Shown: positions 793 to 64,000 of the stretch, piece by piece | How positions within the stretch are numbered: position 1 is the stretch's first letter | How the letters are laid out: each line of letters opens with the position of its first letter | The notes under the pieces: model-generated | Told to the model about the DNA's origin: nothing | The model's database searches: none | The model's input: the letters and a program-made list of their open reading frames with translations, nothing else | Assembly: GCA_963422635.1 (NCBI GenBank) | Contig: OY730415.1 | Coordinates: forward strand, 433,231-497,230 | Reading direction: 5' to 3' | DNA: 64,000 nucleotides | Source of the DNA: Dehalococcoidia bacterium | Lineage (GTDB): Bacteria; Chloroflexota; Dehalococcoidia; Lucifugimonadales; UBA3495 | Program-made: the position numbers and the translations under genes

Positions 793-1719
793 GTGCAAGC
801 GCCGGTGAAAAATCCATACCGCAAGGGGCCGCCGGATGCAGTCGGGTTGGCCGCAGCTCAGGCCGCCCAGGACGCAGCCCGCCCGGCGGTGGTAGTCTTG
901 TTCGGTTCCCGAGCTCGGGGCGACTGGCGGAAAGATTCGGACATCGACCTGCTGGTAATTACCGAGACGGAGGATACCAGAACCGCCCAGGGCGCCGCCT
1001 ATCGGGGCGTCCAAGCCTGGGAGAAGCGGCGCCGCTCCGGCCTCCAAGTCGATATCATACCCATGACTCGCCTGCAGTTTGAACGCTGCCGCCGGGCCAA
1101 ACAGCATATCGCCGGCCAAGCCGACACTTACGGGGTGGTTATGAGCGGGGAGGAACTGGAATACCGCAGCAGGTACGAGGACGGGTATCCCGACCACTGG
1201 CCGGCAACCATTAACCGCATTGAGAATGCTGAAATCTGGCTCCGCAACTACAACGAGATGGTTGATGCCAGCCACTGGGATCAAGCCATTATGGGAATGG
1301 CCGCCCAGCAAGCCGTGGAAAATGCCTTGAAAGGCGTCTTGTCCTGTCTCAATGTGGCAACGGGTTACACCCACAACCTTCTAGACACCTGGAAAGAGTT
1401 GCAGAGCTTGGCCCAATTCCGGCAATCAGCGCCGGAGGAACTGCTGATTGCCGGACAGTCCCTGTTTGAATACTTGAAATATCCGGACCCGCAGCGGCCA
1501 GGAGAATCCTTGGACTGGCTCACCGAATACGCGGCCCATTACCGCTACTTCCGGGCTTCCTACGCTATGTCCCAAACCGGTCGGCTGGAGTTGCAAAGCC
1601 TGGTCAATTCCTTGGTGGAATCGCTGGTGTCGCACATCTACCGACTTAGCGGCGCTACTCCCCAAGATGTTTACCCAGACGGGCTGCGCCCCTGGGAACG
1701 CCGCCAGCCGGAAACGTAA
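793..1719 (+). CDS. fused minimal nucleotidyltransferase (MNT) and HEPN domain protein
   Basis: GTG start 9 nt after GGAGG. N-terminal MNT signature VVLFGSRARGDWRKDSDIDLLVITE. C-terminal HEPN-like helix pair AVENALKGVLSCLNVATGYTHNLLDTWKEL. Confidence 0.7.
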   Translation: MQAPVKNPYRKGPPDAVGLAAAQAAQDAARPAVVVLFGSRARGDWRKDSDIDLLVITETEDTRTAQGAAYRGVQAWEKRRRSGLQVDIIPMTRLQFERCRRAKQHIAGQADTYGVVMSGEELEYRSRYEDGYPDHWPATINRIENAEIWLRNYNEMVDASHWDQAIMGMAAQQAVENALKGVLSCLNVATGYTHNLLDTWKELQSLAQFRQSAPEELLIAGQSLFEYLKYPDPQRPGESLDWLTEYAAHYRYFRASYAMSQTGRLELQSLVNSLVESLVSHIYRLSGATPQDVYPDGLRPWERRQPET

Positions 1720-3640: not shown

Positions 3641-4432
3641 ATGGACTTGGAGCTTAAGGATAAGGTAGCTATCATCGGCGGGGCCAGCAAGGGTTTGGGG
3701 CGGGCCTGCGCCGATGTGCTGGCGGAAGAGGGCGCCAAACTCGCTATTTGCAGCCGCACGGCTGCCGACCTGGAGCAGGCGGCGGCGGAGATTCGCGATG
3801 CGACCGGGGCCGAAGCGCTGGCCTTGCCCGCCGACCTGGAAGACTATGACAGCATCAAAAAGCTGGTGGAAGCCACGGTCAGCCACTACGGGCAACTGGA
3901 TATTATGGTGAACAACTCTGGCGGGCCGCCGCTGGCTCGTTCCGAAACGGCTACCGAGGAGCAGTGGGAAACGGCGGTGCAGCGGTCGCTATTCTTTTTT
4001 GCGCGGATGTCCCGGGAGGCCATCCCGCATCTGAAGGCGCAGGGCGGCGGCCGTATCGTCAACATCCTAGCCAGCACCGTTTACCAACCCATCCCCAACC
4101 TGGCCCTTTCCGGCGCTACCCGGCTGGGCGCGGTGGCCTATATGAAAAGCCTGGCCGACGAGGTAGGACGGGACGGCATCTTGATTAACAACGTCTGCCC
4201 CGGCTCCATCCTCAGCGAGCGGATGCTCTCCAACGTTACCTCCCGCGCCCAAGAATTGGGCATATCGGTGGAGGAGGGCTTGGCCGAGCGAGCCAAGGAG
4301 ACTGCCGTAGGACGCATCGGCGAACCCAAGGAGCTGGCTTACCTGGTGGCATTTTTGGCTTCGGGCAAGTCCAGCTATATCACCGGCACGACTATTTTGG
4401 TGGACGGCGGATTAGTGCGCTCGGTCATTTAG
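3641..4432 (+). CDS. short-chain dehydrogenase/reductase (SDR)
   Basis: The internal ATG at 3641 after GGAAAGAGGGGGA gives MDLELKDKVAIIGGASKGLGRA (TGxxxGxG-type Rossmann motif) and NNSGG. The upstream part of track ORF 3326.. is not protein-like. Confidence 0.85.
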   Translation: MDLELKDKVAIIGGASKGLGRACADVLAEEGAKLAICSRTAADLEQAAAEIRDATGAEALALPADLEDYDSIKKLVEATVSHYGQLDIMVNNSGGPPLARSETATEEQWETAVQRSLFFFARMSREAIPHLKAQGGGRIVNILASTVYQPIPNLALSGATRLGAVAYMKSLADEVGRDGILINNVCPGSILSERMLSNVTSRAQELGISVEEGLAERAKETAVGRIGEPKELAYLVAFLASGKSSYITGTTILVDGGLVRSVI

Positions 4433-4433
4433 G

Positions 4434-4459
4434 GCTGAACCCGGCCGGTCGGGTTCAGC
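4434..4459 (+). terminator. GC-rich hairpin just after the SDR stop (terminator-like, no U tract)
   Basis: GCTGAACCCG / CGGGTTCAGC form a perfect 10-bp stem with a 6-nt loop, starting 2 nt after the stop at 4432. Confidence 0.35.
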
Positions 4460-4485
4460 TCGGCGGCAGGGCCGGAATGTAGGGT

Positions 4486-4833
4486 ATGAGAGCAAACTTC
4501 ACACCTCCTGAAGAACCAGCGGACGCTGCGGGGTATAACCGGCGGGGCAATCAATACAGCCGGAACGGAGCTTATGAGCAGGCTATTGCCGACTATACGC
4601 AAGCTCTGGAGTTGGACGCTGCGCTGGCTGAAGCGTGGTTTAACCGGGGGGTGTCGTTCTATGAGCTGGGACAATACGAGGATTCCATCGCCGACCTGAC
4701 CCGGGCCATCGAGCTAGACCCAGAGGAGGATAACTACTATGGCCGCCGCTCGTTGGCCTACCTATTCAGCGACCAACCGGAGCAGGCCCAAGCCGACCAA
4801 GACAAATGCGACGAGTTAAGGAACCGGGGGTAG
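4486..4833 (+). CDS. tetratricopeptide repeat (TPR) protein
   Basis: Repeated TPR consensus: AYEQAIADYTQALELDAALAEAWFNRGVSFYELGQYEDSIADLTRAIELDP. Confidence 0.75.
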   Translation: MRANFTPPEEPADAAGYNRRGNQYSRNGAYEQAIADYTQALELDAALAEAWFNRGVSFYELGQYEDSIADLTRAIELDPEEDNYYGRRSLAYLFSDQPEQAQADQDKCDELRNRG

Positions 4834-4968
4834 CGGGCGCTCTATCCGCCCCTGAAAACCTGAAACATCTGTCGCATCACATCAGAAAGCCGACGTCCTT
4901 CCGACATCCGCCACCCACCGGAATCTACCTCAGCCCCTGCCTACCTCCGCTCCGACCTGGTTCCTGGT

Positions 4969-5352
4969 TCAGCTACTAGCGGCAGTTTCGGCGTCCCGGA
5001 TATAGTCTGCCGTAGCGCAAATTTGCCCTTGCGCCAAGTCCTCCGGTTCGCAGTCGCCTTCGTAGAAGCAGTTGCCGTGCAGCGCTCCCATACGGTCGAA
5101 GTAGCGCTGGCGTAGCGACTCCAGCGCGGCGCTTTCCCGGCTCAAAGCCCGAATGCCCCGCGAGGTTTGGCTGGTGTATTCGGGTATTTCCCCGGTGCGG
5201 GCCAGCAGCAGGGAGTCGGTAGCCCTTTTGGTGGCGCCCCACGCCTTTTCGGCGGCGTTGCGGATTTTCCCCAGCTCCAACATTTCCAGGGCGTCGGCGT
5301 AAAGCTGGTAGGAGTCGGCAAAAATGTCGGCGGGCAGCGCAGTAATCAGCAT
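4969..5352 (-). CDS. PaREP1-like (HEPN-superfamily type) small protein, paralog 1
   Basis: 127 aa. Core KIRNAAEKAWGATKRATDSLLLARTGE and LHGNCFYEG. Clear paralog of 13353..13736 (same length, about 80% nt identity in the core by eye). Family name is from memory. Confidence 0.6.
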   Translation of the reverse strand: MLITALPADIFADSYQLYADALEMLELGKIRNAAEKAWGATKRATDSLLLARTGEIPEYTSQTSRGIRALSRESAALESLRQRYFDRMGALHGNCFYEGDCEPEDLAQGQICATADYIRDAETAASS

Positions 5353-5557
5353 CGGTTAATCACCCCTAGCCTTGTGTATCGGGAGGGAGTAGCCCCTGCA
5401 TGGCTGGTCAAGCGGTTTTGATAATCATCAACTTTACCGTACCGGTGGGCGCTCATAATGTCAACGCCAAGCATCGGTTGATCACTTTCGGCCAGCGCCG
5501 GAGGGGAATACGGCCCGGTTACCCAGTCGGTGGCGCGGGCGGTTCGCTAGGGATGTC

Positions 5558-6241
5558 TTAATGGGCATGCATATCGGGGGCGGGCCAGATAATTCGGGGA
5601 GTTTTGCCGGCCTTTCTCCGCTCCACCCGAATGGTTACCTCTGCGATGTTGGCAACCTGTCCTTCAACAGTCAGTTCAACGACTTCTCTTTGGTGACCAT
5701 CACCGTAGCAATCCTGGATTCGGTGGAATGTATTATTGCCCCGCATAGCAGGATGTTGCCCCCCAGCATAACCTGAATTGATGTGTGAAACGGTGATTCG
5801 TTCCAAGTTACGTTCTACTAGCCTGCGGGTATCCAGTATCAGCACATCGTGCTCTAATCCCAGGTACGGTAGTGCATTCAGAATGCTATTAAGCCTTTCT
5901 TCGTTCACCCAGAAGAAGCACCTGCGGTTCAGGGTTTCATACCAATCTTGAGGTGTCAGGCCATCTAACAAGAAAGGTTCCAGCATTGGGGGGGCAATAG
6001 TACGATGGTGGTTTCGTAAGACAGCCCTTTCGTGAACAGGATGCTCAATAGGAACACTTTCCGGGCGATGTTCGCACAATAAATTGTTTCGTTCTTCCCC
6101 TTCAACCCCGTACAGGTCAAGAAGCGCAACAGTACTCAGTAGCCCATGCCTTTTAATACTGTCCCAACTGCCTGCTTCGGCCATGTGGTATAGCTGGGGA
6201 TGTTTTTCGATAAATCGCTCTATCATTATGAATCTTTTCAA
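5558..6241 (-). CDS. DUF7002-like protein with a DarT/Tpt1-like (ADP-ribosyltransferase-fold-like) N-terminal motif
   Basis: HPQLYHMAEAGSWDSIKRHGLLS resembles the DarT/KptA-type first motif (YH.T...SI...GLLS). Later motifs are VSHINSGYAG and REVVELTVEG. The gene is markedly lower in GC than its flanks. Confidence 0.5.
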   Translation of the reverse strand: MKRFIMIERFIEKHPQLYHMAEAGSWDSIKRHGLLSTVALLDLYGVEGEERNNLLCEHRPESVPIEHPVHERAVLRNHHRTIAPPMLEPFLLDGLTPQDWYETLNRRCFFWVNEERLNSILNALPYLGLEHDVLILDTRRLVERNLERITVSHINSGYAGGQHPAMRGNNTFHRIQDCYGDGHQREVVELTVEGQVANIAEVTIRVERRKAGKTPRIIWPAPDMHAH

Positions 6242-6279
6242 CCTCTACTGGCAAAAATGTAACCGGGAGTATCCGGGGT

Positions 6280-6705
6280 TTATTGGGGTGCTGGCCGGAA
6301 GTAAGGCACGGTTACCCGGTCGGTGGCCCTTACAAAGGTTACTTCCACCGGCATTCCGATATACACCTCGCGGGGGTTGCATTCGACGATGTTGGTGAAC
6401 ATCTTTACCCCCTCCTCCAGCTCCACCAAGGCCAGCGCATAAGGCACGTCCTGGTCGAAGCCCGGCGTCCGGTTCTGGTAGGTTACGGTATAAGTCCACA
6501 CCGCTCCTCTGCCGCTGGCCTGAACCCACTTGACGCTTTCGGACCAGCAGTTGGCGCAGATGCCCCGGGGATAGAACTGATACTCCTGGCACCGGTCGCA
6601 CTTCTGAATTAGCAACTGTCCCCGGCGGCAGGACTCCCAGTAGGGCTGGGTTTCGCCGACGATGGTGGGCAGCGGCTTGTTCCATTCCGTCTGTGGTTGC
6701 GTCAT
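6280..6705 (-). CDS. Zn-ribbon/OB-fold protein (DUF35 family), thiolase partner
   Basis: CDRCQEYQFYPRGICANCWS zinc ribbon followed by an OB-fold region. Lies 3 nt downstream of the thiolase-like gene, the classic pair arrangement. Confidence 0.85.
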   Translation of the reverse strand: MTQPQTEWNKPLPTIVGETQPYWESCRRGQLLIQKCDRCQEYQFYPRGICANCWSESVKWVQASGRGAVWTYTVTYQNRTPGFDQDVPYALALVELEEGVKMFTNIVECNPREVYIGMPVEVTFVRATDRVTVPYFRPAPQ

Positions 6706-6708
6706 AGC

Positions 6709-7902
6709 CTAATCCCTCCCCAAAATGGCGGTGCCGCCGCTGTGCCGGGCGCCCAGGGAGCCGCCGGTGCCGTGACAGAGGGCGATTTGGCAGTCCGGCG
6801 CTTGGCGCGGCGTTCCCGCAAACTGATGGCGCAGTTGACGGGTGGCTTCCAGCAGCAGGAAGATACCTCGCATCCCCGGGTGGTTGGAGGACAGGCCGCC
6901 GCCGTCGGTGTTGATGGGCAGCTTGTCGGGCAGTTCGGAGTCCACCCGGAGCCGCCCGCCGGAAACGAAAGCGCCGCCTTCTCCCTTTTCGCAAAAGCCC
7001 AAATCTTCCAGGGTTTCCACCACGGTGATGGTGAAGGAGTCGTAAATCATCGCCATGTCGATGTCCTGGTGGGTAACGCCGGCCATGGCAAAGGCCGGTT
7101 CGTGACTCTGCTTGGCGGCGATATACATCAAGTCCCGCTGGCCGGCGCCTTGGTGGGCAATGGCCTCGCCGACGCCCAGCACCCAGACCGGCGTATGGCG
7201 GCAGTTGCGGGCAACTGCCGGAGAAGCTACCACTACGGCGCCGCCGCCGTCGGTGATGACGCAGCAGTCGGGCAGGTGAAGCGGTGAGGAAATTACTCGG
7301 GAGTTAACCACGTCGTCCACCGTTATCGGGTCGCGGAAAAGGGCTTCCGGGTTCATCGTGGCGTGATAGCGCACCGCCACCGCCACCTCGGCCAACTGCT
7401 CTGAGGTGGTGCCGTAAAGGTGCATGTGCCGCTGGGCAATCATAGCGTAGAGCCCCACAGTAGTCAGGCCGTACAATTCCTCAAAGCTGTCCGGCGACGG
7501 GTCCAAGCGGGGGTGACCATAGCGGCCTACCCCGCCGGTGCCTACGGAGACGCCGCCGGAGCGAGCCAGGCTACTATAGGTGATGACGGCGCAATTAATG
7601 CGCCCGGCGGCGATAGCCGTCAGGGCATGGGAGAGGTGAAACTCGAAGGAGCCGCCGCCTACCGTGGTGTTGTCCACGTATTTGGGATACATATTCAGGT
7701 AGTCGGCCAAGTTCATCCCGCTGTTGCGGATGCTGCTGGAGGCGGTGAAGAGGCCGTCCACGTCCTGCTTGGACAGGCCGGCGTCGGCCAGGGCCTTGAT
7801 GACGCTCTCCCCCTGGATTTGCAGTTCGCTTTTGTCGGGGGCGTAGCGAGTAACGTGCTCGTGGATACCCACTATCGCCGCGCCGCGCTTCAGGTTGACC
7901 AT
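6709..7902 (-). CDS. thiolase-like protein (SCP-x / DUF35-associated acetyl-CoA acetyltransferase family)
   Basis: Start moved to ATG 7902 (MVNLKRGAAIVGIHEH) behind GGAGG. Thiolase-type C-terminal motifs CHGTGGSLG and NTDGGGLS. Confidence 0.85.
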   Translation of the reverse strand: MVNLKRGAAIVGIHEHVTRYAPDKSELQIQGESVIKALADAGLSKQDVDGLFTASSSIRNSGMNLADYLNMYPKYVDNTTVGGGSFEFHLSHALTAIAAGRINCAVITYSSLARSGGVSVGTGGVGRYGHPRLDPSPDSFEELYGLTTVGLYAMIAQRHMHLYGTTSEQLAEVAVAVRYHATMNPEALFRDPITVDDVVNSRVISSPLHLPDCCVITDGGGAVVVASPAVARNCRHTPVWVLGVGEAIAHQGAGQRDLMYIAAKQSHEPAFAMAGVTHQDIDMAMIYDSFTITVVETLEDLGFCEKGEGGAFVSGGRLRVDSELPDKLPINTDGGGLSSNHPGMRGIFLLLEATRQLRHQFAGTPRQAPDCQIALCHGTGGSLGARHSGGTAILGRD

Positions 7903-8236
7903 AAGCTGGAAACCTCCCCAAAGGAGATTAGGAGAATAAGGCAATTATGCCATAGATGGGAGGAAAGGTGGTAACGGCGGATTCCGGGTCTCCAGTCGAA
8001 GTTAATGTAGCCGTCCACCCCGGCATCGGCGCCTTTCTTCTTGTCTTGGGCCGGGCGTCCACCAAGCCCAAAGGCGCCGCTCGAACTGATAGCGTCCGGC
8101 GCGTTCGCTCTTTAACGCTAAAGCTTGGGCGCTTTCCACGTCCCGGGGAATGCCGATTACGCAGATGACGGTGGGGGCGCCGGGGAACGGAGTAGTAAAC
8201 TCTACTATACGTTACGTTACGCTGTCCAGGCATTAC

Positions 8237-13352: not shown

Positions 13353-13736
13353 ATGCTGGAAACCGACCGGGTAAGCGCCGTCTTTGCCGACGCCCGATTT
13401 CTCTATGACGATGCGCTGGAAATGCTGGCGCAGGACAAAATCCGCAATGCGGCGGAAAAGGCCTGGGGCGCCACCAAGCGGGCCACCGACGCCCTGATAC
13501 TAGCCCGCACCGGGGAGTTGCCAGCAACCACCGCCATTACTTCCCGAGAACTGCTCCGGTTGGCTAACCAATGGGACAACGGCGACTCTATGGTAGGTCG
13601 CTATTACACTCGTATCGGCCACCTGCACGGCTCCTGTTTCTACAACGGGATGTGCGAACCGCTCGACGAAACAGAACGTCGCATCCGGGAAACCCTGGAC
13701 TACATCCAAGACGCCGAGGAACTGGCCGGGGAGTAA
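13353..13736 (+). CDS. PaREP1-like (HEPN-superfamily type) small protein, paralog 2
   Basis: 127 aa. KIRNAAEKAWGATKRATDALILARTGE and LHGSCFYNG. Its stop lies 6 nt before the methyltransferase ATG at 13743. Confidence 0.6.
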   Translation: MLETDRVSAVFADARFLYDDALEMLAQDKIRNAAEKAWGATKRATDALILARTGELPATTAITSRELLRLANQWDNGDSMVGRYYTRIGHLHGSCFYNGMCEPLDETERRIRETLDYIQDAEELAGE

Positions 13737-13742
13737 GCCTCT

Positions 13743-15408
13743 ATGCCTAACACTCTCTACTACGGCGACAACTTGCAAGTCCTCCGGGAGTATGTCCCCG
13801 AAGAATCGGTGGACCTGGTTTACCTGGACCCGCCTTTTAACTCCAACGCCTCCTAACAACGTCCTGTTCCGGGAAAAGAGCGGCGAGGACTCGCCGGCCC
13901 AGATAAAAGCCTTCACCGACACCTGGGAATGGACGCTGGAAACGGAGCGCGCCTTTGAGCAGGACATCATCCTGCACCCGGGGACGCCGGCGGCGGTGAA
14001 GGAGATGATTGCCGCCTTCCGCCAGTTTATTGGCCGAAACGCAATGCTGGCCTATCTGGTAATGATGACGCCCCGCTTGGTGGAACTGCGCCGCATCCTC
14101 AAACCCACCGGCAGCCTCTACCTGCACTGCGACCCCACCGCCAGCCATTACCTCAAAATCCTGCTGGATGCAGTGTTCGGGGCAAGGAACTTTCGGAATG
14201 AGATTGTGTGGCGGCGTTATTCGTCTCACGGGAATGTTTCACGCAATTTGGGAAGGGTTCACGACGTTATATTTAGATACTCGAAGACAAAAAAATTTGT
14301 GTGGAATCAACTATTTCGACCTTTACGTGAAGAATATGTGGAAAAGTTCTTTCACAAGGTAGAACCTGAGACAGGCAGGCGTTATCAATCTCAAAATGTG
14401 CTTAATCCGAACGCTGACCGTCCTAATTTGACCTATGACTGGAACGGCTATACGAGAGTATGGAAGTGGTCAAGGGAAAGAATGCAACAACTTCACGCTG
14501 AAGGGAGGCTCGAGTATTCCCGAACGGGCTATCCAAGGCTGAAACAATACTTGGACGAATCTTTGGGCGAGCGTCTTCAAGACATTTGGGATGATCTAGC
14601 TCCAGTAGGGCAATCAGGAGAAGAAGTTAGCCTCGGCTATGATACCCAAAAACCCATGTCCTTGTTGGAGCGCATTATTCGGACATCCTCCAACGAAGGC
14701 GACGTGGTTTTAGACCCCTTCTGCGGCTGCGGGACGGCGGTAGCGGCGGCGCAGAAGCTGAACCGCCAGTGGCTGGGCATCGACATCACCCACTTGGCGG
14801 TGGCCCTGATGAAAAGCCGGCTCAAGACCGCCTTTGACCTGGAGCCGGGCCGGGACTATGCGGTGGTGGGCGAACCCCGGGACGCCGGCAGCGCCCGCGC
14901 CTTATGGGAGCAAGACCCCTACCAGTTCCAGTTTTGGGCGGTGTCCTTGCTGGAAGCCCAACCCTACGCAGCAAGAGTGGCGGAGCAGAAACGGGGCGCC
15001 GACCAGGGCATAGACGGGATAATCTACTTTGTGGACGGCCTCCGCCGGGAGCCGCAGAAGGTGGTAGTTCAGGTCAAGGGCGGGCGGGTATCCTCGCCCC
15101 AAATCCGCGACCTGAAGGGGGTGGTGGAACGGGAAAAGGCGGCGTTAGGGTTGTTCATCTCCTTGGAGGAACCGACGCGGGATATGCGGAAGGAGGAAGC
15201 CGGCGGCGGCTTTTACCGCTCCGACCTGTGGCAGCGGGATTTCCCGAAAATCCAGCTCCGCACCATCGACGAGCTGCTGGCCGGCCACAGCTTTGACCTG
15301 CCGCCGCGCCAACTGATGTACCAACCGGCGGAACGGGTGCGCTCCCCCGAAGGGGAACAGGGAGAGTTGGGGGTTGCGGACTTCGGTCTGCGCCGGCATG
15401 AAGGTTAA
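13743..15408 (+). pseudogene. beta-class N6/N4 DNA methyltransferase fused to a C-terminal Mrr-like PD-(D/E)xK nuclease domain, frameshifted after codon 37
   Basis: Frame 0 reads MPNTLYYGDNLQVLREYVPEESVDLVYLDPPFNSNAS then TAA at 13854. Frame +1 continues NNVLFREKSGEDSPAQIKAFTDTWEW ... YDTQKPMSLLERII ... DPFCGCGT ... GADQGIDGI...VVVQVKGG. Confidence 0.8.
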
Positions 15409-40406: not shown

Positions 40407-41549
40407 ATGGCTCCGCTGAACAAGATAGAATCCGTCAAAATTCGGGGGTTCCGGTCGCTCGCTGACGTTGAGCTTACAGCTATGCCCAACGCGGCAGCGC
40501 TGATCGGCCCCAACGGGTCTGGCAAGTCCAACTTTATTCGTTTCTTCGAAATGCTGAGTTGGATGCTCGTATCACGGCAATTGGGCGAATTCATCAACCG
40601 ACAAGGTGGCGCCGACGACCAGCTGTTTGGAGGCAACTCGTGTACGCCCAGGCTGACCGGCGAAATAACCATGCGCACCCGTAGGGGCCGGAATGACTAC
40701 CGGTTTGCTTTATCTTACGCAAATCCCGACCGTTTTTTGTTCACTCAAGAGGAGTTGCATTTTAGCAGAGATTACCACGATTTGGCAAGCGAAGCTAGTT
40801 GGCAAACCCTCGGCAGTGGGCATTTGGAAGCAAAAATTGTCGAAGCCGCGCAGACTCCGAATCACCCGGGAATCAACCAAACAACTGCCCGGGTAATCGT
40901 AAATCTGCTTCGCAATTGTGCCGTCTATCAATTCCATGACACTTCATATAGCTCAAACTTCAAGAGCAAGTGGGATGCTTGGGAAAACAACCAACTACGC
41001 AGTCATGGCGGTAATCTGGCAGCTGTGTTATATCGCTTGGAGCAACAAGACTTAAGGCGGTATGAATTAATCTGTAAGCAAATCGGTCGGGTTCTACCGG
41101 GGTTTGACCGCTTTGCAATTGAGATGGATTATGACAAAGTGATGCTGCGGTGGAAGGCCAAGTGGTCCGACAAAACCATTGGCGCACACCTTACTTCGGA
41201 CGGGTCGCTTCGCTTTTTCGCCCTAGCCACTCTCCTCAATCTACCTGCCGAAATGCTTCCCGATGTCATCCTTCTGGACGAACCGGAACTGGGCCTGCAC
41301 CCGGCGGCCATCGCCTTGATTGGCGGCATGATTAAGTCTCTCTCCGTGGAGAGGCAGGTTATCGTGGCAACCCAGTCCCCGCTGCTGGTGGATGCCTTTG
41401 ACCTGGACCAGATTTTCGTGATGGACTTGAAGGACGGGCGGACTATTGTCAGCCCGGCGAAGGAAAAGGAACAGGAACTCAAACACTGGCTGAAGGATTA
41501 TTCTACGGGCGATTTATGGCAAACGAACATTTTGGGAGGGAGGCCTTGA
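40407..41549 (+). CDS. ABC-type (AAA_21/AAA_23-like) ATPase, predicted defence-module ATPase
   Basis: IRGFRSLADVEL...LIGPNGSGKSNF (Walker A), ILLDEPELGLHP (Walker B) and VATQSPLL. ATG lies 4 nt after the coxG stop. GC is lower than the flanks. Confidence 0.8.
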   Translation: MAPLNKIESVKIRGFRSLADVELTAMPNAAALIGPNGSGKSNFIRFFEMLSWMLVSRQLGEFINRQGGADDQLFGGNSCTPRLTGEITMRTRRGRNDYRFALSYANPDRFLFTQEELHFSRDYHDLASEASWQTLGSGHLEAKIVEAAQTPNHPGINQTTARVIVNLLRNCAVYQFHDTSYSSNFKSKWDAWENNQLRSHGGNLAAVLYRLEQQDLRRYELICKQIGRVLPGFDRFAIEMDYDKVMLRWKAKWSDKTIGAHLTSDGSLRFFALATLLNLPAEMLPDVILLDEPELGLHPAAIALIGGMIKSLSVERQVIVATQSPLLVDAFDLDQIFVMDLKDGRTIVSPAKEKEQELKHWLKDYSTGDLWQTNILGGRP

Positions 41550-42154
41550 TTCGTCTGTCCATCGTTGTGGAAGGGGAAACGGAGGAGGCATTCGTTAAAG
41601 AAGCGCTTGCCGAACATCTGCGGTCAAGGGGAATGGAGCCGCAACCCAACTTGCTCGGGGGCAACGTTACGGTAGAGCGTTTGGCCTCGAGGATGGCTCT
41701 GCTTTTCTGGAGTTCTGACCGAGTAACTTCCCTGGTTGATTTTTACGGGTTTCGCGACAAAGGAAGCGACACTGTGGTTGCCTTGGAGGGGCGAATCAAC
41801 CAGGCTGCTATAGCGAAGGTAAACCGCTCAATGGACGAACCGAGGGTAATTCCTTACGTCCAGAAGTATGAGTTTGAGGCTTTGTTGTTCACAGACGTAA
41901 AAGCTTTCGGGAATGCAATCGGAGTGTCAGAACAAAGTATCGTACAACTTGCTGAGATTCGTTCGCAATTTCAGACACCCGAAGACATCAACGACAACCC
42001 CGCTACTGTGCCAAGCAAGCGTATAGCACAGCTAATACCCAGGTACAGTAAAGTGGTTGCCGGACCTTTAGTCGCCCTGGAAACGGGGTTGGCCGCCATT
42101 CGCGCCCAATGCCCCCGATTCAACCAGTGGATAACGCAACTGGAGAATATCTGA
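41546..42154 (+). CDS. DUF4276 family protein (Toprim-like partner of the ATPase)
   Basis: LIRLSIVVEGETEEAFVKEAL is the characteristic DUF4276 start. TTG 41546 behind GGAGGGAGG overlaps the ATPase TGA (41547-41549). Alternative ATG at 41516. Confidence 0.7.
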   Translation: MIRLSIVVEGETEEAFVKEALAEHLRSRGMEPQPNLLGGNVTVERLASRMALLFWSSDRVTSLVDFYGFRDKGSDTVVALEGRINQAAIAKVNRSMDEPRVIPYVQKYEFEALLFTDVKAFGNAIGVSEQSIVQLAEIRSQFQTPEDINDNPATVPSKRIAQLIPRYSKVVAGPLVALETGLAAIRAQCPRFNQWITQLENI

Positions 42155-62855: not shown

Positions 62856-63818
62856 CTACGGAGAAATGCTTGCTTCCGACAAACGCTGCAAGAATTTCTG
62901 GCCGATTTTTTCAGGGTCATCTTTCAAGTCTAGCGACTTAATCAGGTTCCCAATTTTCCCCGCCTCTACCATAGCGCTCATATAATGCCATTGCTTACTA
63001 ATCAAGGTTGCCAATAATTTCTGCAGTTCCTCAATATCATCTATTCGCAAAAACCCGCCCGTGCTTTTGGGATTACGTTTGCCTGGTGATTCCTTTGGTT
63101 CTACCACCAGCGGATTTGGAGTTAGTGAAATCCATTTCTGAATCAGACCGGAACTAACTGTCTTATCAATGTTGGCTCGATATCCGGTGGGCGGCGGCGT
63201 GTTTCCGATAACTATAAAGGGAACCTTTTCACTCCCTGTGTAACTTCGGGTTATCGTTGCTTTCCCTATAGCTTTTAATATGCTGTCCGTTCTTAATATG
63301 CTAGGCCGACCGAAATGTCTATCATAATCTGCGGTCGGTCTGGTCATATCTCTCTCATGCCAGTTCCATATAAAGGACATCTTGACCTCAAACAAGCACT
63401 TTATGATATTGGCAGACACCGGGCCATCCATATTTTGGGTCAAAATCGCCAAATCGGCTCCGCTGTTTCCTTTAAGGCCCAACTCAGGACAAATTACTCC
63501 CCGCTTGACGAACATTTTGGGGAACAATTGAGGGGGCAATTCTTTAATCGCAGAACTCAAAAGATTCAGTGCGAAATTTTCCGTCTTGTTAGCAACTACA
63601 GCATTACGACCGTTCATGGTAGTTACCACAAGGTTGCCGCCACACTTAGGACAGTCTCCGGATTTTCCTCTAAAAAACGCCTTCTCAGAAAACCCGCATT
63701 GCTTCTTACAGTAGATCGTTGCCAGCATGGAATCTTCGACCATCACCTGTTCAACTTCGGCGCTCCAAAGCGATTGCTTGCTAGGGCTGCCTAAAATGGC
63801 TGATGATTTATCGACCAT
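62856..63818 (-). CDS. putative restriction endonuclease with an N-terminal zinc ribbon, R-M system 2
   Basis: CKKQCG...CPKCGG ribbon. Candidate PD-(D/E)xK GADLAIL...FEVKMS. ATG 63818 overlaps the MTase stop (alternative ATG 63842). About 45% GC. Confidence 0.5.
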   Translation of the reverse strand: MVDKSSAILGSPSKQSLWSAEVEQVMVEDSMLATIYCKKQCGFSEKAFFRGKSGDCPKCGGNLVVTTMNGRNAVVANKTENFALNLLSSAIKELPPQLFPKMFVKRGVICPELGLKGNSGADLAILTQNMDGPVSANIIKCLFEVKMSFIWNWHERDMTRPTADYDRHFGRPSILRTDSILKAIGKATITRSYTGSEKVPFIVIGNTPPPTGYRANIDKTVSSGLIQKWISLTPNPLVVEPKESPGKRNPKSTGGFLRIDDIEELQKLLATLISKQWHYMSAMVEAGKIGNLIKSLDLKDDPEKIGQKFLQRLSEASISP

Positions 63819-64000
63819 AGACGCCACTGCGCCTTTCCGCAATCACCAGCCCATCCGACCCGGTGCGGATATATCGGAGCAGCGGCTTGGTCTCCGCCGC
63901 CAACCGACGTTGCGCCAAGGCCCGATACTCGGCGGATATCTCATAGCCCACAAACCGGCGGCCCGTTTTCAGTGCGGCCAAGGCGGTGGCGCCACTACCC
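63808..64000 (-). CDS. DNA methyltransferase, C-terminal end (partial, runs off the window), R-M system 2
   Basis: GSGATALAALKTGRRFVGYEISAEYRALAQRRL is the motif I region and tail of an N6/N4 MTase. Stop at 63808-63810. Confidence 0.7.
   Translation of the reverse strand, partial: GSGATALAALKTGRRFVGYEISAEYRALAQRRLAAETKPLLRYIRTGSDGLVIAERRSGVYGR

Follow-up and report, generated by a model that had tools for sequence, protein, structure and literature searches.

The stretch analysed here, referred to as the window, comprises 64,000 nucleotides of contig OY730415.1 from a Dehalococcoidia bacterium. On its minus strand, at 5558..6241, lies a 227-codon open reading frame (ORF) with a TTG start and an in-frame ATG at codon 6, and this study concerns the protein of the DUF7002 family that it is predicted to encode. 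The ORF matches the Pfam family DUF7002 (PF22531) with E=2.9e-56 and 190.6 bits (cut-off 27), residues 15-202 lying on model positions 1-194/195. Because of this match the ORF is judged to be a real gene, and the DUF7002 label, which the initial annotation had given to this 227-aa frame, is right. The same annotation had described the gene as lower in GC than its neighbours, and this is also the case: its GC is 0.487 and its GC3 (GC at third codon positions) is 0.478, compared with 0.58-0.63 and 0.67-0.79 in the neighbouring genes and a GC of about 0.62 in the flanks. Within the 64 kb, about 1% of 684-nt segments are equally GC-poor.

The public gene call at this locus (P0001) is a 142-aa protein that begins at Met86, is 100% identical to the ORF product and covers 63% of it. 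The short call is devoid of the first motif and of three invariant arginines, and homology supports the long 227-aa form. No convincing promoter or ribosome-binding spacing was found for the gene. A promoter-like site at 6254-6225 was set aside as a chance occurrence (2 sites against 1.4 expected), and transcription from it would begin inside the ORF. In addition, an Rfam search of 4000-8000 gave no match, and no family of PADLOC v2 or NCBIfam matched the protein.

Conserved residues of DUF7002

In total, 101 homologs were gathered, all of them single-domain proteins of roughly 200-235 aa, and residue conservation was read from a 67-sequence alignment and an 84-sequence set. Eight residues are invariant in the 67-sequence alignment (G33, L34, R59, L87, N155, G157, R167 and E189), and H19, M20, A21, E22, W26, R51, R76, D77, N105, F109 and W111 are nearly so. 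The window protein retains H19, R51, R59, R76, N105, F109, W111, N155, G157, R167 and E189. Judged from these alignments, the signature of the family is H19 / F109-F110-W111 / E189, with the arginines R51, R59, R76 and R167. The window copy departs from its relatives at position 77 (Table 1) and at position 81, where Thr replaces a conserved Pro, and it carries a one-residue insertion.

The initial annotation had the protein open with a DarT/Tpt1-like first motif, and had drawn the Tyr and Glu of an H-Y-E triad from the segments SHINSGY (residues 152-158) and EVVELTVEG (residues 186-194). The first motif, HPQLYHMAEAGSWDSIKRHGLLS, is present, at residues 14-36 rather than at the very start. In the case of the triad, E189 of the second segment is invariant, whereas Y158 of the first is Tyr in only 6 of the 84 sequences, and the aromatic motif FFW stands at motif II instead.

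Predicted fold

The AlphaFold2 model of the window protein, for which the homolog alignment served as input, has a predicted local distance difference test (pLDDT) of 93.9 and a predicted template modelling score (pTM) of 0.90; the AlphaFold model of a distant homolog from Pseudomonas aeruginosa (P0424) has a pLDDT of 96.4. The initial annotation had proposed that a predicted structure be compared with ADP-ribosyltransferase (ART) folds, and this comparison returned almost only ART-fold structures for both models. For the window model, the first Foldseek match in the PDB is DarT1 of Escherichia coli (8baq; E=1.4e-3, prob 0.98), and the other matches include cholera toxin A1 (prob 0.99), heat-labile enterotoxin, pertussis toxin S1, the Rhs toxin TreX and Tpt1/KptA (prob 0.93); the few non-ART rows stand near the bottom of the list with prob 0.01. 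Against the viral library, the same model matched phage Tpt1-like and DarT-like proteins. For the P0424 model, DarT1 again comes first (E=2.3e-4, prob 1.00, TM-scores 0.46/0.48), ahead of three further DarT structures, the cholera and pertussis toxins, Tpt1, MTX and pierisin. Because the TM-scores are modest, DUF7002 is, according to the models, a divergent branch of the ART fold that lies outside every solved family.

Sequence comparison reaches the known families at the first motif. Searches of PDB sequences with the single protein and with the family profile gave no match, and neither Pfam DarT (PF14487) nor Pfam PTS_2-RNA (PF01885) matched the window protein; sub-threshold Pfam DarT matches occur in 2 of 67 family members (best E=0.062). 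Comparison by hhalign with single DarT or single Tpt1 sequences was not significant. With a 32-sequence DarT profile, hhalign gave P=0.0031 at a probability of 10%, over the N-terminal 50 columns only, and paired H19 with DarT H13 ('IYHITHIDNL..') and R59 with DarT R51. With a small Tpt1 profile, motif I only was aligned, with the NAD-lobe stretch 'LFHGTAEKNF..' (P=0.042). The DarT/Tpt1-like character claimed earlier for the first motif thus holds, for this stretch alone.

Arg51 of DarT2 is equivalent to Arg52 of DarT1, which binds the beta-phosphate of NAD+; Tyr71 is the H-Y-E aromatic of DarT2 and the catalytic Glu is E160 in DarT2 and E152 in DarT1 (PMC11543638). In the model of the window protein, H19, FFW and E189 lie on predicted strands in the ART order. 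Judged by this order and by the predicted strands, H19, R59, F109-F110-W111 and E189 would be the DUF7002 counterparts of the DarT residues.

Family distribution and partner genes

The scan of one genome per species found a relative in 277 species, and a neighbourhood study was carried out on 84 loci, at which ORFs within 6 kb of DUF7002 were clustered. The best 80 loci are distributed among Chloroflexota, Acidobacteriota, Actinomycetota, Verrucomicrobiota, Myxococcota, Alphaproteobacteria, Planctomycetota, Deinococcota and archaeal metagenome-assembled genomes (MAGs) of Nitrososphaerota and Bathyarchaeia. According to an exhaustive profile search, the family comprises 2,212 clusters at 50% identity.

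The survey of homolog neighbourhoods that the initial annotation had suggested revealed a strong association with partner genes, including a macrodomain gene. At 48 of the 84 loci (one of them an in-frame fusion) a gene of about 535 aa lies directly before DUF7002 on the same strand, and at 47 loci its stop codon abuts or overlaps the DUF7002 start. Its product consists of an adenylate-kinase-like P-loop domain and a short adenylosuccinate synthetase (AdSS) domain of the archaeal/PurZ type, and is called kinase-AdSS below. It matches Pfam Adenylsucc_synt with E of about 1e-56 and, in profile comparison, AdSS (5k7x, 3.5e-78), PurZ (6fm1, 4e-52) and an AdkA-like protein (3lw7, 1.5e-10); the AdSS-like domain retains the GTP and IMP motifs and has Ser in place of the catalytic Asp of GDEGKG. 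Ahead of kinase-AdSS, 38 of the 44 loci with enough upstream sequence carry a gene of about 460 aa, the product of which joins an M78 domain of the IrrE/CapP type, with an invariant HExxH motif, to a C-terminal macrodomain of the ALC1/TARG1/DarG class. The profile matches of this M78-macrodomain protein are 2afc/2fg1/5e3b (about 1e-48), TARG1 (1e-11), DarG (4.5e-5), IrrE (2.6e-11), CapP (3.8e-9) and 6lfu (7.6e-8). The resulting three-gene cassette, exemplified by L016:6985-10660 and present also at L012, L017, L018, L020, L023, L027, L028, L085 and other loci, occurs across many bacterial phyla and in Nitrososphaerota.

Variants of this arrangement were also found. In a Bryobacterales MAG (L051:8381-10654), a single 757-aa ORF contains the full kinase-AdSS fused in frame to DUF7002, and it is either a natural fusion or the result of a lost stop codon. 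In Myxococcota (L036:3788-10663; also L039 and L049), the order is an XRE-type HTH gene, an M78 protease, a 396-aa protein with no Pfam match, a HerA-like ATPase of 732 aa, kinase-AdSS and DUF7002. In Labrys sp. and on a conjugative plasmid of Agrobacterium rubi (L093:9708-11748, L095:8738-10859), kinase-AdSS and DUF7002 face a YfbR-like HD 5'-nucleotidase, and these loci also hold a protein of 450-470 aa with no Pfam match. Cassettes lie next to integrase, HNH, transposase and PD-(D/E)XK genes, and 14 plasmids carry one; no DUF7002 homolog was found in the phage collection. PADLOC has no model matching DUF7002, the AdSS-like domain or the three-gene cassette, and literature searches found no paper describing a macrodomain/protease partner of DUF7002 and nothing relevant that ties adenylosuccinate synthetase to anti-phage defence.

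The literature search likewise found no paper naming DUF7002 or PF22531. A 2025 survey of Legionella ARTs in BMC Genomics, however, predicted an "Lmac_3114" family as DarT-like ARTs, with the motifs Hxx, FFW and xxE, with DarT and PTS_2-RNA as nearest relatives and with DNA as the predicted substrate, and described a P. aeruginosa operon of this family with an AAA domain, AdSS and NUDIX (PMC12522546). The window protein fits these motifs with Y-H19-M, F109-F110-W111 and V-V-E189. DUF7002 is found in P. aeruginosa, Pseudomonas syringae, Burkholderia and Ralstonia, all of which are named in that survey, and its P. aeruginosa operon consists of a kinase, kinase-AdSS and DUF7002. From the motifs, neighbours and taxa, DUF7002 and Lmac_3114 are almost certainly the same family. 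The earlier statement that DUF7002 has no assigned function needs correction in part, as a prediction as an ART had already been published for what is almost certainly this family.

The window copy and its insertion site

Searches of the six-frame translation of the 64 kb by tblastn and profile hidden Markov models (HMMs) found no relative of kinase-AdSS and none of the macrodomain partner of the family, the latter search being for this one macrodomain type, with NADAR and ARH-type hydrolases not searched. The window copy is thus one of the solo genes, of which there are 36 among the 84 loci sampled. A rough neighbour-joining tree puts the solo genes into several clades that nest among the cassette-linked ones, and both forms carry the same invariant residues. 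The tree places the window copy with L011 and L007, two further solo genes from Dehalococcoidia, and by this position the copy belongs to a derived solo clade that appears to have lost both partners.

The gene order of the window (Fer2, Mo-hydroxylase, FAD subunit, SurE, thiolase, ChsH2, DUF7002) is the same at the L011/L001 and L007 loci. The flanking proteins are 71-95% identical between the window and these syntenic relatives and the DUF7002 proteins 51-57%, and DUF7002 is GC-poor in all three genomes. A recent acquisition unique to the window genome was rejected, as two related species have a copy at the same site, though only 51-57% identical. Of the initial description as an orphan gene with no antidote, the absence of an adjacent macrodomain gene is correct, but the gene is not unique, since divergent copies are found in these two Dehalococcoidia. 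Between SurE and thiolase, both syntenic relatives have an inserted TIR-domain gene of the CAP12/PCTIR type (L001:7369-8172, L007:5412-6215), accompanied by a small gene of the DUF2283 or HicB-like kind; this place is empty in the window.

The order of thiolase and ChsH2 is the same in relatives L001-L007, and no terminator-like site was found between ChsH2 and DUF7002. The 3' end of ChsH2 recurs, in decayed form, beyond the DUF7002 stop (Table 1). This direct repeat is the best in 4800-6800, and none of 100 shuffles reached its score; its second copy marks where the inserted segment, about 790 nt long, has its far edge. Meanwhile, DUF7002 follows ChsH2 in none of 45 metagenomic relatives (ChsH2 60-82% identical), 31 of which have at least 700 nt downstream, enough to judge. 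Because of the flanking repeat and the empty sites in relatives, the DUF7002 gene is, on the comparison of these sequences, an insertion, which bears out the acquisition that had been suggested from its low GC. The gap between ChsH2 and the convergent TPR gene (4834-6279 in the window; L098-L141 in the relatives) is only 28-29 nt in L121, L122 and L124, and contains an OmpR-type response regulator in many relatives, a 371-aa enzyme in L118, and DUF7002 and PaREP1 in the window. By this comparison the gap is a variable spot, with DUF7002 there only in a narrow clade. Since the three alleles are so divergent, DUF7002 possibly entered the site through separate events. A functional link to the thiolase/ChsH2 operon was set aside as unsupported: insertion into a variable gap explains the adjacency, and the 45 relatives have the operon and no DUF7002.

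Table 1. Features of the DUF7002 locus in the window
Feature	Position	Strand	Evidence and remarks
DUF7002 gene, 227 aa	5558..6241	-	ORF; Pfam PF22531 E=2.9e-56; AlphaFold2; Foldseek: predicted DarT-like ART-fold protein, solo
Motif I, residues 14-36 (HPQLYHMAEAGSWDSIKRHGLLS)	6134..6202	-	beta-1 strand (16-22 in the model) with H19, then a helix; H19 in 83/84
R59	6065..6067	-	Arg in 84/84; opposite DarT R51 in hhalign
R76-N77 (family motif R-D)	6011..6016	-	Asp in 82/84; Asn in the window copy alone
Met86 codon	5984..5986	-	start of the shortened 142-aa public call P0001; Pfam domain begins at residue 15
Motif II, F109-F110-W111	5909..5917	-	strand 107-111 in the model; F109 and W111 in 84/84; aromatic position corresponding to Tyr of H-Y-E
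N155-S156-G157 loop	5771..5779	-	N and G invariant; adjacent Y158 not conserved
E189 (motif III, predicted catalytic Glu)	5675..5677	-	strand 189-193 in the model; 83/84, the remaining sequence being an alignment gap
Thiolase (6709-7944) and ChsH2/DUF35-type zinc-ribbon/OB gene (6280-6705)	6280..7944	-	Pfam; co-oriented, ends 38 nt upstream of the DUF7002 TTG
Direct-repeat copy 1, coding 3' end of ChsH2 (ATDRVTVPYFRPA)	6290..6327	-	30/38 positions identical to copy 2
Direct-repeat copy 2, decayed duplicate of the ChsH2 end (ATDWVTGPYSPPA in one frame)	5497..5534	-	23 nt past the DUF7002 stop
PaREP1 gene	4969..5352	-	Pfam E=1.7e-10; 205 nt downstream; GC 0.617, native-like; not a conserved partner

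The co-oriented PaREP1 gene, which had been noted as a PaREP1/HEPN-like neighbour, does lie downstream, but it is not a conserved partner and was rejected as one: it is absent at this site in L001-L007, and near the other 83 DUF7002 loci only one marginal, spurious match was obtained (L058). PaREP1 is multi-copy in these genomes, and a second copy in the window (13353-13736) is 56% identical to the first. The gene that directly follows this second copy encodes a 538-aa protein in which an N6/N4 DNA methylase is joined to an Mrr_cat/NA-iREase1 nuclease-like domain (13353-15408, plus strand, for the pair).

Three further features of the window can be mentioned. A 308-aa fusion of an MNT-like nucleotidyltransferase to HEPN (793-1719, plus strand) gives weak matches to PADLOC PDC-S09 and to MntA-like proteins, and a DUF4276 protein (E=3e-44) is encoded at 41516-42154 on the plus strand; the DUF4276 family is usually paired with an ATPase in candidate defence loci. 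The 328-aa product of another markedly GC-poor ORF (62856-63842, minus strand) has a CxxC...CxxC stretch and matches no Pfam family significantly, and a GC-poor stretch also lies near 43.7-44.2 kb.

Proposed mechanism and alternative readings

Taking the locus and the family together, we think it probable that the window gene is an intact, stand-alone member of DUF7002, a DarT-like branch of the ARTs, that its product carries out an NAD+-dependent transfer of ADP-ribose to a base or nucleotide, and that it lies solo where it was inserted, at the end of ChsH2. The protein would bind NAD+ and release nicotinamide by means of Glu189, and ADP-ribose would then be passed to a nucleic-acid base or a nucleotide, as in DarT, rather than to protein. 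Such an acceptor is more likely than protein in view of DarT as the nearest relative and of a nucleotide enzyme as the obligate partner. In the presumed ancestral arrangement, DUF7002 would be the last gene of a tight cassette, after M78-macrodomain and kinase-AdSS, with the macrodomain as the likely eraser or antidote and the IrrE/CapP-type protease as the likely trigger, switch or regulator. The window copy probably came in on a low-GC segment, about 0.8 kb long, that was inserted where ChsH2 ends (3'), in the variable gap before the convergent TPR gene, and is probably transcribed by read-through from the thiolase-ChsH2 operon. The cell may avoid harm to itself because expression is weak (TTG start, AT-rich codons), because of the unique D77N change, or because the target is normally absent from the cell.

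A wider proposal, which is possible and which we put forward only tentatively, is that DUF7002, kinase-AdSS and M78-macrodomain constitute an undescribed conflict system (anti-phage or addiction) in which reversible ADP-ribosylation is coupled to purine-nucleotide chemistry, and that the solo copies are captured effectors. An ADP-ribosylated nucleotide or base would then be modified by the AdSS-like ligase, or the two steps would take place in the reverse order. Such a system would be spread over at least eight bacterial phyla and Thaumarchaeota-type archaea, and the solo effectors, at variable genomic spots, would be active with no eraser because their substrate is foreign or conditional.

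Several points weigh against the window protein being a DarT-like nucleic-acid ART. The Foldseek E-values are only 1e-3 to 2e-4, with TM-scores of 0.35-0.48. Global and low-threshold hhalign runs against the DarT profile gave no trustworthy alignment past motif I (about 50 columns), and for this reason the match of E189 to DarT E160 is one of position and fold only. FFW, and not Tyr, is the aromatic motif. For the Lmac_3114 family, NAD+ was docked in an atypical, non-standard pose (PMC12522546), and that family is equated with DUF7002 by motifs, neighbours and taxa. In the window copy itself, N77 stands at an otherwise invariant Asp and the conserved Pro81 is missing, so that this copy could be weakened or inactive. 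A toxic DNA modifier with no nearby antidote is hard to square with stable carriage, and yet 36 of the 84 loci are solo. Finally, a simple DarTG-like model does not account for the role of the kinase-AdSS partner, and this partner hints at a small nucleotide, not DNA, as the possible substrate.

This last point leads to an alternative that we consider unlikely, in which DUF7002 would ADP-ribosylate a free nucleotide or metabolite, or act as an NAD+ glycohydrolase, in series with kinase-AdSS, and so make or destroy a modified purine nucleotide. The product would be a signal, a poison or a depleted pool, and solo copies would not be toxic because they act on an endogenous metabolite. The tight coupling of DUF7002 to an enzyme of purine nucleotides, seen in the stop/start overlap and in one in-frame fusion, is as expected for such a pathway, and so are the GTP and IMP motifs that the AdSS-like domain retains together with the Ser for the catalytic Asp of GDEGKG. 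Nucleotide hydrolases, moreover, make up the alternative accessory genes (the YfbR-like HD 5'-nucleotidase, and NUDIX in the P. aeruginosa operon of PMC12522546), and 36 of the 84 loci are stable solos with all invariant residues retained. However, the nearest structural relatives (DarT1/2, pierisin and MTX) modify DNA, and the macrodomain partner is of the ALC1/TARG1/DarG class, which strips ADP-ribose from macromolecules. Nor does the pairing of an ART-fold enzyme with an AdSS-like ligase have a precedent; no ART-fold enzyme is known to act in a pathway with such a ligase.

A second alternative, which appears to us decidedly improbable, is a Tpt1-like phosphotransferase, which would employ NAD+ in removing or capping an RNA or nucleotide phosphate, ADP-ribosylating this phosphate and not the base. 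In the cassette, the phosphorylated substrate would then come from the kinase, and the ADP-ribose-phosphate by-product would be handled by the macrodomain, just as a macrodomain phosphatase follows Tpt1 in tRNA splicing. In both Foldseek lists, the recurring Tpt1 structures have the lowest root-mean-square deviation (rmsd; 4.3-5.9 A), although DarT outscores Tpt1 in both runs. Motif I aligns to LFHGT of the Tpt1 NAD lobe, and DUF7002 has a set of four arginines (R51, R59, R76 and R167), but the protein opens at the NAD-lobe motif, with no N-terminal RNA-binding lobe carrying the Arg-His of the R-H-R-R tetrad, and Pfam PTS_2-RNA does not match. The partner does bear a nucleotide-kinase domain, and ADP-ribose-1''-phosphate phosphatase macrodomains are among the profile matches of the macrodomain partner (6lfu, E=7.6e-8). 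An invariant Glu, as found at position 189, is characteristic of the H-Y-E transferases, and Tpt1 makes no use of one; the clade assignment is argued in the Legionella survey as well (PMC12522546). PTS_2-RNA was also named as a nearest relative in that survey.

That the window copy is a non-functional leftover of a cassette effector, still open and doing nothing in the cell, is very doubtful: the loss of both partners, the unique D77N and P81T changes at two near-invariant positions plus the insertion, the TTG start with no convincing promoter or ribosome-binding spacing, the much faster evolution of DUF7002 than of its neighbours and the mere 142-aa fragment in the public annotation would all suit such a remnant, but the 227-codon frame is intact with the other checked conserved residues present, the model is very confident, two other species have an intact copy at the same site, and many independent solo clades retain the catalytic set.

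Significance

Nucleic-acid ADP-ribosylation, by DarT, CmdT and pierisin-like toxins, is an emerging theme in bacterial immunity, and DUF7002 would add to it a compact and widespread ART-fold branch with a predicted function only. The window can be seen as a natural experiment, in that an apparently intact copy is found with neither of the usual partners, with a visible insertion scar and with the site empty in close relatives. If the window protein is active, how a DarT-like enzyme is tolerated with no eraser becomes the question. For the family, the links to a macrodomain, to an IrrE/CapP-type protease and to a PurA/PurZ-like ligase offer three handles on a possible new defence mechanism. The importance is moderate for the solo copy of the window and higher for the three-gene cassette. 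A smaller gain concerns annotation: the public call can be extended from 142 to 227 aa, and DUF7002 can be noted as a 'predicted DarT-like ADP-ribosyltransferase'.

Comparison with known systems

In the family as a whole, the upstream partner has an IrrE/CapP-type HExxH domain as in CapP/CapH and ImmA/IrrE, and a likeness to HerA-associated defence modules is found in the Myxococcota loci, with their separate HTH, M78 protease and HerA-like ATPase genes. None of these genes is present in the window.

With Tpt1/KptA, DUF7002 shares the NAD lobe of the ART fold, a motif I that resembles LYHGT, and a recurrent low-rmsd Foldseek match. It differs in having no Pfam match to that family and in being devoid of the N-terminal RNA-binding lobe and of the Arg-His pair, motif I of the window protein being preceded by only 13 residues, and also in its invariant Glu.

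The likeness to DarT is closer, comprising the top structural match for both models, motif I with an Arg like R51, and an invariant late-strand Glu like E160. The differences are that the Pfam DarT model does not match, that the alignment ends after about 50 columns, that FFW takes the place of Tyr71, and that about 30 extra residues separate the Arg of DUF7002 from its motif II. As regards the DarTG pair, a macrodomain of the TARG1/DarG class is encoded in the same operon at 38 of the 84 homolog loci, and no relative of it was found in the window. This macrodomain is not an adjacent DarG but forms one protein with an M78 protease, and kinase-AdSS lies between its gene and that of DUF7002.

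The closest description is that of the Lmac_3114 family, which agrees with DUF7002 in motifs, nearest relatives, taxa and type of P. aeruginosa operon. An AdSS domain lies near the genes of that family in 60% of cases (PMC12522546), and 57% of the loci studied here have such a neighbour. The survey recorded the family in bacteria only, whereas MAGs of Nitrososphaerota and Bathyarchaeia are also represented here, and it contains neither the M78-protease/macrodomain partner nor the HerA-linked variant, the in-frame fusion or the solo lineages. Thus, the fold prediction for DUF7002 is not new, and the results on its partner genes, on the solo copies and on the insertion go beyond the earlier work.

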